Assembly: GCF_003334355.1 (NCBI RefSeq)
Contig: NZ_QOWP01000024.1
Direction: 5' to 3' (one strand)
DNA: 64,000 bases
Source: Escherichia coli
Lineage (GTDB): Bacteria; Pseudomonadota; Gammaproteobacteria; Enterobacterales; Enterobacteriaceae
Shown here one piece after another: positions 56,359 through 59,250 of the stretch; positions within the stretch are counted from its first letter, which is position 1; the number at the start of each line of letters is the position of its first letter. The notes under the pieces were generated by a model, which had not been told where the DNA came from, did no database searches, and worked only from the letters and a program-made list of their open reading frames with translations. The translations under genes and the position numbers were made by a program.

Positions 56359-58041
56359 ATGAAGTCTGCATTAAAGAAAAGTGTCGTAAGTACCTCGATA
56401 TCTTTGATACTGGCATCTGGTATGGCTGCATTTGCTGCTCATGCGGCAGATGATGTAAAGCTGAAAGCAACCAAAACAAACGTTGCTTTCTCAGACTTTA
56501 CGCCGACAGAATACAGTACCAAAGGAAAGCCAAATATTATCGTACTGACCATGGATGATCTTGGTTATGGACAACTTCCTTTTGATAAGGGATCTTTTGA
56601 CCCAAAAACAATGGAAAATCGTGAAGTTGTCGATACCTACAAAATAGGGATAGATAAAGCCATTGAAGCTGCACAAAAATCAACGCCGACGCTCCTTTCA
56701 TTAATGGATGAAGGCGTACGTTTTACTAACGGCTATGTGGCACACGGTGTTTCCGGCCCCTCCCGCGCCGCAATAATGACCGGTCGAGCTCCCGCCCGCT
56801 TTGGTGTCTATTCCAATACCGATGCTCAGGATGGTATTCCGCTAACAGAAACTTTCTTGCCTGAATTATTCCAGAATCATGGTTATTACACTGCAGCAGT
56901 AGGTAAATGGCACTTGTCAAAAATCAGTAATGTGCCGGTACCGGAAGATAAACAAACACGTGACTATCATGACAACTTCACCACATTTTCTGCGGAAGAA
57001 TGGCAACCGCAAAACCGTGGCTTTGATTACTTTATGGGATTCCACGCTGCAGGAACGGCATATTACAACTCCCCTTCACTGTTCAAAAATCGTGAACGTG
57101 TCCCCGCAAAAGGTTATATCAGCGATCAGTTAACCGATGAGGCAATTGGCGTTGTTGATCGTGCCAAAACACTTGACCAGCCTTTTATGCTTTACCTGGC
57201 TTATAATGCTCCGCACCTGCCAAATGATAATCCTGCACCGGATCAATATCAGAAGCAATTTAATACCGGTAGTCAAACGGCAGATAACTACTACGCTTCC
57301 GTTTATTCTGTTGATCAGGGTGTAAAACGCATTCTCGAACAACTGAAGAAAAACGGACAGTATGACAATACAATTATTCTCTTTACCTCCGATAATGGTG
57401 CGGTTATCGATGGTCCTCTGCCGCTGAACGGGGCGCAAAAAGGCTATAAGAGTCAGACCTATCCTGGCGGTACTCACACCCCAATGTTTATGTGGTGGAA
57501 AGGAAAACTTCAACCCGGTAATTATGACAAGCTGATTTCCGCAATGGATTTCTACCCGACAGCTCTTGATGCAGCCGATATCAGCATTCCAAAAGACCTT
57601 AAGCTGGATGGCGTTTCCTTGCTGCCCTGGTTGCAAGATAAGAAACAAGGCGAGCCACATAAAAATCTGACCTGGATAACCTCTTATTCTCACTGGTTTG
57701 ATGAGGAAAATATTCCATTCTGGGATAATTACCACAAATTTGTCCGTCATCAGTCAGACGATTACCCGCATAACCCCAACACTGAGGACTTAAGCCAATT
57801 CTCTTATACGGTGAGAAATAACGATTATTCGCTTGTCTATACAGTAGAAAACAATCAGTTAGGTCTATACAAACTGACGGATCTACAGCAAAAAGATAAC
57901 CTTGCCGCCGCCAATCCGCAGGTCGTTAAAGAGATGCAAGGCGTGGTAAGAGAGTTTATCGACAGCAGCCAGCCACCGCTTAGCGAGGTAAATCAGGAGA
58001 AGTTTAACAATATCAAGAAAGCACTAAGCGAAGCGAAATAA
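56359..58041 (+). CDS. ydeN: Periplasmic sulfatase (Ser-type)
   Basis: Signal peptide and the sulfatase signature (AHGVSGPSRAAIMTGR, with Ser in the Cys/Ser-x-P-x-R position). The likely start is MKSALKK, giving 560 aa. Confidence 0.85.
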   Translation: MKSALKKSVVSTSISLILASGMAAFAAHAADDVKLKATKTNVAFSDFTPTEYSTKGKPNIIVLTMDDLGYGQLPFDKGSFDPKTMENREVVDTYKIGIDKAIEAAQKSTPTLLSLMDEGVRFTNGYVAHGVSGPSRAAIMTGRAPARFGVYSNTDAQDGIPLTETFLPELFQNHGYYTAAVGKWHLSKISNVPVPEDKQTRDYHDNFTTFSAEEWQPQNRGFDYFMGFHAAGTAYYNSPSLFKNRERVPAKGYISDQLTDEAIGVVDRAKTLDQPFMLYLAYNAPHLPNDNPAPDQYQKQFNTGSQTADNYYASVYSVDQGVKRILEQLKKNGQYDNTIILFTSDNGAVIDGPLPLNGAQKGYKSQTYPGGTHTPMFMWWKGKLQPGNYDKLISAMDFYPTALDAADISIPKDLKLDGVSLLPWLQDKKQGEPHKNLTWITSYSHWFDEENIPFWDNYHKFVRHQSDDYPHNPNTEDLSQFSYTVRNNDYSLVYTVENNQLGLYKLTDLQQKDNLAAANPQVVKEMQGVVREFIDSSQPPLSEVNQEKFNNIKKALSEAK

Positions 58042-58053
58042 CTAAACCTTCAT

Positions 58054-58078
58054 GCGGCGGATTTTTCCGCCGCCTTAT
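58054..58078 (+). terminator. Hairpin after ydeN
   Basis: gcggcgg-attttt-ccgccgc followed by cttattg. Confidence 0.4.
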
Positions 58079-58092
58079 TGAGCGAGATAGCG

Positions 58093-59250
58093 ATGCACGT
58101 TACAGCCAAGCCCTCCAGTTTTCAATGTAATCTCAAATGTGATTACTGTTTTTACCTTGAAAAAGAGTCGCAGTTTACTCATGAAAAATGGATGGATGAC
58201 AGCACTCTGAAAGAGTTCATCAAACAATATATCGCAGCGTCTGGCAATCAGGTCTATTTTACCTGGCAAGGCGGTGAACCCACTCTGGCTGGCCTGGATT
58301 TTTTCCGTAAAGTTATTCACTATCAACAACGCTATGCAGGCCAAAAACGTATTTTTAATGCATTACAAACGAATGGCATTTTATTGAATAATGAATGGTG
58401 TGCCTTTCTCAAAGAACATGAATTTCTGGTTGGTATCTCGATCGATGGCCCCCAGGAGTTACATGACCGTTACAGACGCAGTAATTCAGGTAACGGTACT
58501 TTTGCAAAAGTGATAGCAGCCATCGAGCGTCTGAAATCATATCAAGTAGAGTTTAATACGTTAACCGTCATTAATAACGTTAATGTCAATTACCCTCTTG
58601 AGGTTTATCATTTTTTAAAATCTATCGGCAGTAAACATATGCAATTTATCGAATTGCTAGAAACCGGGACGCCGAATATTGATTTCAGTGGTCATAGTGA
58701 GAACACATTCCGTATCATTGATTTTTCTGTGCCTCCCACGGCTTATGGCAAGTTTATGTCAACCATTTTTATGCAATGGGTTAAAAACGATGTGGGTGAA
58801 ATTTTCATTCGTCAGTTTGAAAGCTTTGTCAGCCGTTTTTTGGGGAATGGGCATACAAGTTGTATTTTCCAAGAGTCCTGCAAGGATAATCTGGTTGTTG
58901 AAAGTAATGGAGACATTTACGAATGCGACCATTTTGTCTATCCACAGTACAAAATTGGAAACATTAATAAATCTGAACTCAAAACGATGAACAGTGTACA
59001 ACTGACAGCGCAAAAAAAACGGATTTCAGCGAAATGTCTGAAATGTGCATATAAACCTATCTGCAATGGCGGTTGTCCTAAGCATCGTATTACTAAAGTA
59101 AACAATGAGACTGTTTCTTATTTTTGCGAAGGTTATAAAATCCTTTTTTCAACCATGGTACCTTATATGAACGCCATGGTGGAGTTAGCTAAGAACAGAG
59201 TACCGCTTTACCACATTATGGATGTTGCAAAACAAATGGAGAATAATTAA
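58093..59250 (+). CDS. ydeM: Radical-SAM anaerobic sulfatase-maturating enzyme homolog
   Basis: CxxxCxxC radical-SAM motif (CNLKCDYC) and C-terminal SPASM-type Cys clusters. The likely start is MHVTAKPSS, giving 385 aa. Confidence 0.85.

Follow-up and report, generated by a model that had tools for sequence, protein, structure and literature searches.

Ser-type sulfatases are the founding substrates of the AtsB-type radical-SAM maturases. The oxygen-dependent FGE acts on Cys only, and a Ser-type sulfatase is therefore the type most in need of an adjoining radical-SAM maturase. In Klebsiella pneumoniae, the gene of the periplasmic Ser-type S1 sulfatase AtsA adjoins that of AtsB, a cytoplasmic radical-SAM/SPASM enzyme which oxidises the motif Ser to formylglycine, and ydeN and ydeM of Escherichia coli resemble this arrangement. 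The ydeN-ydeM pair is already known, as RefSeq annotates it in K-12 in the same terms (“putative sulfatase YdeN” and “putative anaerobic sulfatase maturation enzyme YdeM”), and as a discovery it matters little.

In the stretch of 64,000 nucleotides of E. coli DNA analysed here (the window; contig NZ_QOWP01000024.1), ydeN and ydeM were found at 56359-59250, exactly where the initial annotation had placed them (Table 1). That annotation had also considered the pair to be a coherent maturation module, and this view held: family membership, the strictly conserved pairing of the two genes in different genera, and existing annotation and literature support the reading that ydeN-ydeM is, very probably, a two-gene sulfatase activation module.

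Table 1. Features of the ydeN-ydeM locus (positions are those of the window; genes run from the first base of the start codon to the last base of the stop codon).
Feature	Position	Strand	Basis
ydeN, S1-family sulfatase precursor, Ser type, 560 aa (ATG start)	56359..58041	+	PF00884, RefSeq annotation
Predicted Sec signal peptide of YdeN, MKSALKKSVVSTSISLILASGMAAFAAHA then ADD	56359..56445	+	Read by eye from sequence
S132-G-P-S-R136, putative formylglycine modification motif, Ser at the modified position	56752..56766	+	Sequence
Intercistronic GC-rich stem-loop, 8 bp, loop UUUU, tail CUUAUUGAG	58054..58073	+	Fold, -18.7 kcal/mol, z = -3.5
ydeM, anaerobic sulfatase-maturating enzyme (radical SAM/SPASM), 385 aa (ATG start)	58093..59250	+	TIGR03942, Pfam, anSMEcpe match
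C12-x3-C16-x2-C19, predicted radical-SAM [4Fe-4S] cluster ligands of YdeM	58126..58149	+	Aligned with anSMEcpe CX3CX2C
SPASM region of YdeM, C257, C263, C278, C315, C318, C324, C328, C345 (two predicted auxiliary clusters) and D279	58861..59127	+	Alignment with anSMEcpe
yneP, 40-aa small protein gene, convergent with ydeM, overlaps the last 35 nt of ydeM	59216..59338	-	RefSeq, translation
Perfect 9-bp inverted repeat with 8-nt loop, CACCCGACA-TAAATTCC-TGTCGGGTG	59304..59329	none	Sequence and fold

The predicted YdeN protein is identical to that of K-12. Its residues 58-408 matched the full length of the Pfam Sulfatase model (PF00884, 1e-70, model positions 1-301 of 301), and the Ser-type sulfatase signature reported by the initial annotation was confirmed in residues 130-143, GVSGPSRAAIMTGR, where (C/S)-x-P-x-R-x4-T-G reads S132-G-P-S-R-A-A-I-M-T-G. 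The candidate formylglycine residue is thus Ser132 (nt 56752-56754). The same annotation had presented this Ser as an oddity beside a radical-SAM maturase, a judgement that was not upheld: Ser occupies the position in 118 of the 120 best YdeN homologues and at all 20 orthologous ydeN loci, solved S1_19 sulfatases have C/S-G-P-S-R at the aligned position, and, given the founding substrates of the AtsB type, Ser at the modification site is what the sulfatase/maturase arrangement predicts, which makes the finding ordinary.

Further sequence analyses revealed that D66, D67, S132, R136, K183, H185, H286, D345, N346, and K364 of YdeN are invariant across 15 orthologues. The metal ligands (DD...DN) and the catalytic G-K-x-H, A-P-H and later K are all present and align with the motifs of 9HH2. 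Ser-type sulfatases of Gram-negatives reside in the periplasm. The N-terminus of YdeN, examined by eye, has a basic N-region, a hydrophobic core and an A-H-A cleavage motif (AHA-A site), with no twin arginine, and YdeN is listed as periplasmic in PMC10746267. Judged by these features, YdeN is an S1 sulfatase of full length that has all of the predicted catalytic residues and a predicted Sec-type signal peptide. A TTG at 56326, proposed as the ydeN start by the ORF finder, was rejected because, as for ydeM, conserved N-termini and a Shine-Dalgarno sequence favour the annotated ATG.

YdeM, which differs from the K-12 protein in 4 residues, had been described as an anSME-like radical-SAM/SPASM protein. 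In agreement, the TIGR03942 model (“anaerobic sulfatase maturase”) matched it over positions 1-362 of 363 with 502.6 bits, against a curated equivalog cut-off of 349.45, and this score lies far above those of RiPP-maturase models; Pfam matches were obtained to Radical_SAM (4.5e-22) and SPASM (1.2e-5). The three cysteines of the CX3CX2C motif and all eight of the SPASM region are invariant in 21 of 21 orthologues, so that all 11 Fe-S cysteines are kept, and the GGE SAM-binding motif (G60-G61-E62) is intact, invariant and aligned with that of anSMEcpe. A TTG at 58078 was discarded as the ydeM start, since the conserved N-terminus MH(V/I/F)T.KP favours the ATG at 58093.

Between the two genes, 12 nt past the ydeN stop and 19 nt ahead of the ydeM ATG, lies a stem-loop whose position is kept at 21 of 21 loci while its sequence has turned over completely: every one of these spacers has a stem-loop, the sequences are unrelated, and most carry a T-rich tail. 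In E. coli the first 8 tail bases include 4 T, which is under the threshold of the terminator scan, and 5-6 T are found in the tail in Leminorella, Citrobacter, Budvicia and several Anaerobiospirillum. The consensus terminator scan flagged neither this stem-loop nor the hairpin beyond ydeM; only the ydeO terminator (56005-56027) was detected. The stem-loop probably acts on most transcripts behind ydeN, by termination or stabilisation, which would yield much sulfatase and little maturase. A terminator-like structure in this place means that co-expression of ydeN and ydeM depends on read-through, a point against the module. The two genes are reported to be co-transcribed, and AraC targets the pair (PMC10878103). 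A search for the AraC half-site TAGC-N7-TCCATA with at most 2 mismatches returned 46 matches against 50 expected, none of them in the ydeN promoter region, and the pattern was uninformative. The intercistronic stem-loop is absent from the initial annotation. An Rfam scan of 55900-59700 at E <= 1 gave isrK as its only match, on the minus strand at this stem-loop, and the match was rejected as chance (20.3 bits against a gathering score of 50, E = 0.26).

Downstream of ydeM, the initial annotation had described a 290-bp gap with a hairpin. Both the length of the gap (59251-59540, to yddA) and the perfect 9-bp hairpin were reproduced; the gap, however, is not empty, as yneP extends into it. YneP is among the E. 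coli small proteins of PMC6001520, where epitope tagging and immunoblots serve to confirm synthesis. The hairpin begins 53 nt past the ydeM stop and falls within yneP codons 4-12. Its folding energy is -19.2 kcal/mol on the plus strand (z = -4.8) and -21.0 kcal/mol on the minus strand (z = -5.3), and none of 200 shuffled sequences was as stable. About 15 distinct perfect hairpins of this size (23 overlapping registers) occur in the whole window, against about 2 registers after shuffling, which places the hairpin beyond chance, yet also indicates that such hairpins are common in the genome. It is confined to E. coli and the very close relative Escherichia sp. MOD1 and absent from E. albertii, where a different stem-loop follows ydeM. 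A REP-like repeat-family element was rejected as its origin, the 290-bp gap being found once per genome.

No T-run stands beside the hairpin on either strand (plus-strand tail TGTCGTCATC, minus-strand tail CCTTGTTAAG), and with neither a U-tract nor a hit in the terminator scan it is not a canonical intrinsic terminator. Most likely, on weak support, it is the 3'-end structure of a Rho-terminated ydeNM transcript. The tables of Adams et al. 2021 contain a Rho termination region on the same strand as ydeNM at MG1655 position 1579674, about 59209 in the window (Rho score 3.4, p = 5e-5, low coverage). The Term-seq 3' ends in those tables include none at either hairpin, and ydeNM was probably too poorly expressed in the media of that study for 3' ends to appear there.

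Two other explanations of this hairpin were weighed. It may belong to yneP, either because the structure, starting 7 nt after the AUG in the minus-strand mRNA, limits translation initiation, or because it is tolerated coding sequence without RNA function; we regard this as unlikely, with perhaps the better claim of the two. The span of codons 4-12, the slightly more stable minus-strand fold and the joint occurrence of hairpin and yneP ORF in E. coli strains and in Escherichia sp. MOD1, with the hairpin missing from E. albertii, are consistent with it, and the one variant observed (CCG to CCA) leaves the YneP sequence unchanged. That same natural C to T variant, however, produces an A.C mismatch in the minus-strand RNA, whereas the plus-strand RNA can still pair as G.U; this is a single event and weak evidence. 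Rather improbable is an intrinsic, Rho-independent terminator of the ydeNM operon: it would account for so stable a plus-strand stem-loop this close behind ydeM and for the preserved G.U pair, but the tail, UGUCGUCAUCAUC, lacks a U-tract, the scan does not flag it, the Rho region points to Rho-dependent termination, E. albertii lacks it and carries another stem-loop after ydeM, and the Term-seq tables have no 3' end at 59304-59329.

Genomic context analyses revealed that a ydeM orthologue lies directly downstream of the ydeN orthologue, on the same strand, at 20 of 20 orthologous loci in nine genera (Escherichia, Leminorella, Citrobacter, Budvicia, Cedecea, Yersinia, Mixta, Grimontia, and Anaerobiospirillum), and that the outer flanking genes vary from genus to genus. 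The pair occurs in at least 5322 of 5426 complete E. coli genomes. Three distant Cys-type sulfatases from the same scan had no anSME within 6 kb. No conserved third partner, such as a transporter or glycosidase, was found around ydeNM in the nine genera examined, where the neighbourhoods are unrelated. Isolated hints came from Mixta (genes of sialate catabolism), Leminorella (an alpha-galactosidase subfamily model was matched) and Grimontia (a ROK regulator). Some E. coli strains also carry a Ser-type paralogue of YdeN, P0066 (77% identical), without an adjoining YdeM homologue.

According to PMC8379841, which also cites a suspected third system of maturation, a Ser-type sulfatase was obtained in active form from E. 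coli with neither FGE nor anSME co-expressed, a result that leaves room for another maturation route or for activity without formylglycine. That YdeN acts with Ser132 itself as the nucleophile, like other hydrolases of the alkaline phosphatase superfamily, or is matured by another E. coli system, with YdeM dispensable or serving another substrate, would fit this result and the solitary P0066, but is very improbable in view of the adjoining genes at every orthologous locus, the purifying selection on both genes with all Fe-S cysteines and the whole S-x-P-x-R...TG motif invariant, and the standing of YdeM as a sulfatase-maturase equivalog; moreover, a strain with P0066 could use the chromosomal YdeM in trans, because almost every E. 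coli has ydeM.

For the activation module, the chemistry and the order of events can be proposed by analogy with the characterised AtsA/AtsB and anSMEcpe systems. YdeM would be a cytoplasmic radical-SAM/SPASM enzyme with three [4Fe-4S] clusters that binds the unfolded YdeN precursor at S132-G-P-S-R. Cleavage of SAM would generate a 5'-deoxyadenosyl radical, which would take the C-beta hydrogen from Ser132, and the residue would be converted to C-alpha-formylglycine independently of O2, with the two auxiliary clusters of YdeM relaying electrons, as described for the auxiliary clusters in PMC7771511. After maturation, YdeN would be exported to the periplasm by Sec, and there its hydrated formylglycine would act as the nucleophile in sulfate-ester hydrolysis, with D66, D67, D345, and N346 predicted to bind the metal and R136, K183, H185, H286, and K364 to form the rest of the active site. 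No direct biochemical demonstration of YdeM modifying YdeN was found in the literature, nor was a report of the substrate or activity of YdeN. Deletion mutants of aslB and ydeM were reportedly the subject of a 2007 study.

Regarding the substrate, the nearest solved relatives of YdeN act on galactose-4-O-sulfate, which leads to a 4-O-sulfated Gal/GalNAc glycan as the best guess, made with low confidence. A 2024 paper links ydeNM to AraC and mucin use and proposes the GlcNAc-6-O-sulfatase BT4656 as an analogue of YdeN in mucin use (PMC10878103). As a tentative joint proposal, held at somewhat less than even confidence, the intercistronic stem-loop may have been selected as an attenuator or stabiliser that sets a high sulfatase:maturase expression ratio and would then be a built-in stoichiometry device of a mobile two-gene module, and, as a separate matter, YdeN may act on host glycans as a Gal/GalNAc-4-O-sulfatase and not as the proposed GlcNAc-6-O-sulfatase. 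The gut substrate of YdeN, together with proof that YdeM matures it, would clarify the use of sulfated host glycans by E. coli and would help to explain the poor maturation of Ser-type sulfatases in laboratory E. coli.

In comparison with the K. pneumoniae system, YdeM shares CX3CX2C and the eight additional cysteines with AtsB. It nevertheless scored 360.6 bits with the NCBIfam equivalog NF010308, under the cut-off of 484; taking NF010308 to represent the AtsB/AslB type, YdeM would on that reading be a separate branch within TIGR03942. Likewise, the match of YdeN to the “arylsulfatase” equivalog model was weak (124 bits, cut-off 481). Among solved structures, the best match to YdeM is anSMEcpe of Clostridium perfringens (PDB 4K36-4K39; 4K36 at 6.5e-63 over YdeM residues 4-359), and the alignment pairs all 11 cluster cysteines, the GGE motif and the Asp that follows the third Cys of the SPASM region. 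The eight SPASM-region cysteines of YdeM correspond one-to-one to cysteines of anSMEcpe that we take to be its eight auxiliary-cluster ligands. YdeM nevertheless falls below the cut-off of the anSMEcpe equivalog NF010321 (254 bits against 441). The natural partner of anSMEcpe is a Cys-type sulfatase, whereas the neighbour of YdeM is of the Ser type.

The best solved relatives of YdeN are S1_19/S1_16 galactose-4-O-sulfate (carrageenan) sulfatases (9HH2, 6BIA, 6B0J, 6PSM, and 9FO1; 2e-52 to 7e-39, residues ~105-440), with which it has the DDLGY, (C/S)GPSR, GKWHL, NAPH, and SDNG motifs in common. YdeN differs from them in an insertion of ~24 residues after DDLG (residues ~85-108) and in a divergent C-terminal domain, and the native chain 9HH3 has Cys at the motif where YdeN has Ser. 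These relatives presumably come from marine degraders of algal polysaccharides, while YdeN is from a gut enterobacterium. BT4656 of Bacteroides thetaiotaomicron (S1_11) is, like YdeN, a gut-bacterial S1 sulfatase dependent on a radical-SAM maturase, a dependence that is predicted for YdeN. The chain 5G2V, named N-acetylglucosamine-6-sulfatase and presumably BT4656 or a close S1_11 enzyme, matched YdeN at 6e-30, more weakly than the 4-O-sulfatases. In B. thetaiotaomicron a single anSME serves many sulfatases, whereas in ydeNM the maturase stands one-to-one with its sulfatase.

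The ydeN and ydeM genes lie in the gene order ydeO-ydeN-ydeM-(yneP)-yddA of E. coli, and the boundaries assigned to both in the initial annotation were exact. In K-12 MG1655, they correspond to b1498 ("putative sulfatase YdeN") and b1497 ("putative anaerobic sulfatase maturation enzyme YdeM"). There is nothing anomalous about this module, which has been described and annotated before. Of 5426 complete E. coli genomes searched by megablast, 5393 contain the region 55900-59700, 5322 of them with coverage of at least 80%. A stem-loop resembling a bidirectional terminator (GGGGCAG...CTGCCCC, with a T-run on each side) was observed just 3' of ydeO, followed by the AT-rich (31% G+C) region upstream of ydeN (56000-56399).

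Coordinates of genes and stem-loops (window positions unless a locus is named)
Feature	Position	Strand	Description
Stem-loop 3' of ydeO	56005-56027		bidirectional, terminator-like
ydeN	56359-58041	+	RefSeq "sulfatase-like hydrolase/transferase"
Spacer stem-loop	58054-58073		between ydeN and ydeM
ydeM	58093-59250	+	RefSeq "anaerobic sulfatase maturase"
Hairpin after ydeM	59304-59329		inside yneP
yneP	59338..59216	-	RefSeq, 40 aa; convergent with ydeM, overlaps its last 35 nt
P0066 (YdeN paralogue)	L035:3847-5544 and L036:2729-4426		flanked by a porin gene and an IS110 transposase

The YdeN protein, which showed no differences from that of K-12, matched the full Pfam Sulfatase model (1e-70) and contains the full set of residues that define S1 sulfatases. 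The segment GVSGPSRAAIMTGR spans residues 130-143, and thus the modification site is Ser132. Alignment of 15 orthologues (70-84% identity) revealed that the metal ligands D66/D67 and D345/N346, as well as R136, K183/H185, H286, and K364, are present and invariant. The closest solved relatives were S1_19 and S1_16 sulfatases (2e-52 to 7e-39), whose substrate is galactose-4-O-sulfate in carrageenans, while the GlcNAc-6-sulfatase 5G2V matched at 6e-30; about 24 residues that follow the DDLG motif of YdeN are an insertion relative to these proteins. No NCBIfam equivalog scored at or above its cut-off for YdeN. Judged by eye, the N-terminus resembles a Sec signal peptide ending in A-H-A, without a twin arginine, and YdeN appears among the periplasmic proteins in a ribosome-profiling paper (PMC10746267). 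In addition, a Ser-type paralogue (P0066) of 565 amino acids, 77% identical to YdeN, occurs as a second copy in some E. coli strains and belongs to a cluster of 303 member sequences; no YdeM homologue was found 3' of it in the two loci tabulated, where three short unannotated ORFs are located.

Against the TIGR03942 model ("anaerobic sulfatase maturase", cut-off 349.45), YdeM reached 502.6 bits, far exceeding its scores on all RiPP-maturase models, and both the Radical_SAM and SPASM domains were found with Pfam. Its top solved relative is the anaerobic sulfatase-maturating enzyme of Clostridium perfringens (anSMEcpe, PDB 4K36; 6.5e-63 over residues 4-359), with which it shares the CX3CX2C motif, the GGE-containing segment and eight further cysteines, along with an Asp that follows the third of these cysteines. 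Eleven cysteines (C12, C16, C19, C257, C263, C278, C315, C318, C324, C328, and C345) are invariant among 21 orthologues, whereas the twelfth, C103, is variable. Compared to K-12, YdeM of the window has four residue changes, H166N, P312S, Q316L, and Q317K. The last three cluster at or next to C315-x-x-C318, although these cysteines themselves are unaltered, and residues 312-318 (window 59026-59046) are a hotspot of local polymorphism or a patch of recombination.

The "but" in the title of the initial annotation suggested that Ser at the modification site is odd, yet it is not unusual: Ser occupies this position in 118 of the 120 nearest database homologues (identity of 70% or more), and the other two sequences lack that region. 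A scan in which each species was represented by one genome yielded 27 loci, of which 21 were kept as having a full-length YdeN relative (at least 69% identity) and downstream sequence. Twenty of them came from Escherichia albertii, Escherichia sp., Leminorella, Citrobacter, Budvicia, Cedecea, Yersinia, Mixta, Grimontia, Anaerobiospirillum, and an Enterobacteriaceae MAG. The remaining one (JARKOR010000108.1), labelled as a Candidatus Nanosynbacter MAG, has the flanks seen in the window, ydeO-ydeN-ydeM-yddA with 99-100% protein identity to E. coli, and almost certainly belongs to E. coli and was binned wrongly. In all of these loci, a YdeM orthologue (46-97% identity) followed ydeN on the same strand after a gap of 48-519 bp, and Ser was the motif residue in the 20 loci examined one by one (20/20). 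No anaerobic maturase was found within 6 kb of three distant Cys-type sulfatases from the same scan.

Only E. coli-like contigs have ydeO beside the pair; yddA adjoins it in these and in the close relative Escherichia sp. MOD1. Since the neighbors in other genera are unrelated while the pair is kept, ydeNM behaves like a self-contained two-gene unit. The low G+C content (ydeN 44-46%, ydeM 37-40%, against 49-55% for the adjacent ydeP) and the different neighbors in every genus examined would fit a two-gene cassette that has spread horizontally. In Mixta theicola (L021:379-5718), ydeNM directly follows genes that match a sialate:H+ symporter (above cut-off) and, below cut-off, a MurR/RpiR regulator and an aldolase of the N-acetylneuraminate-lyase-like kind; this arrangement, which is not conserved elsewhere, hints at host-glycan use.

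A further stem-loop, not mentioned in the initial annotation, lies in the 51 nt that separate ydeN from ydeM. It is terminator-like and GC-rich, with an 8-bp stem (-18.7 kcal/mol) and the 3' tail CTTATTGAG, and ends 19 nt before the ydeM ATG. A comparably stable structure (-13.5 to -22.7 kcal/mol) was present in the spacer of all 21 loci, ending 6-23 nt 5' of the ydeM start in most, with sequences unrelated between genera and mostly T-rich tails. Fifteen spacers were short enough for a shuffling test, and in 13 of them no equally good fold arose among 100 shuffles. Position kept without sequence conservation suggests a selected intercistronic terminator or stabilizer, which would yield more sulfatase than maturase; as an attenuator or stabilizer, it may fix the ratio between the two.

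The hairpin reported after ydeM is real, with a perfect 9-bp stem and an 8-nt loop whose folding is thermodynamically exceptional on both strands, but the 290-bp gap assigned to it is not empty, as codons 4-12 of yneP form the site. This gene, listed among E. coli small proteins (PMC6001520), encodes a product with K3T relative to K-12. The hairpin is kept in diverse E. coli strains and Escherichia sp. MOD1, while the corresponding E. albertii sequence is unrelated and contains a different stem-loop. No adjacent T-run was found on either strand, and a consensus terminator scan gave no flag. The missing T-run, the yneP overlap and the E. albertii difference all speak against a plain terminator located in unoccupied sequence. 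A natural C to T variant in the 3' arm, synonymous in yneP, leaves a G.U pair in plus-strand RNA and an A.C mismatch in minus-strand RNA; this single event hints weakly at a plus-strand role. For the ydeM strand, the bicyclomycin data of Adams et al. 2021 include a region of Rho termination at MG1655 1579674, about window 59209 (Rho score 3.4, p = 5e-5, low read counts, 800-nt windows), and their listing has no Term-seq 3' end at the site. The Rho region agrees with the lack of an intrinsic terminator 3' of ydeM. We infer that termination of ydeNM transcription could be Rho-dependent, and the transcript, once trimmed, may be protected at its 3' end by the stem-loop.

Deletion mutants of aslB and ydeM were reportedly studied by Benjdia et al. 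in 2007. Co-transcription of ydeM with ydeN has been reported, along with control of the pair by AraC, and YdeN has been described as lacking a known substrate, with mucin GlcNAc-6-sulfate speculated (PMC10878103). In published studies, a sulfonated azo dye induced ydeN and no other gene, ydeN was strongly repressed at pH 4.4 (PMC10746267), and its protein was detected in O157 cultures in anaerobic rumen fluid.

The proposal of a coherent ydeN-ydeM maturation module is supported by the TIGR03942 score, the invariable downstream YdeM and the conserved Ser. The oxygen-dependent formylglycine-generating enzyme (FGE) is known to accept only Cys. As AtsB is a radical-SAM enzyme that converts serine to formylglycine via C-beta hydrogen abstraction (reviews), a Ser-type sulfatase with an adjoining radical-SAM maturase is the textbook arrangement; the two auxiliary clusters of such a maturase serve as an electron relay (PMC7771511). 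There is a small chance that YdeN is active without formylglycine or is matured by a system other than YdeM, in line with an active Ser-type sulfatase produced in E. coli with no maturase co-expressed (PMC8379841). The probable maturation of YdeN by YdeM corresponds to the organization of AtsA/AtsB in Klebsiella, where, as in ydeNM, a Ser-type sulfatase has an adjacent radical-SAM maturase.
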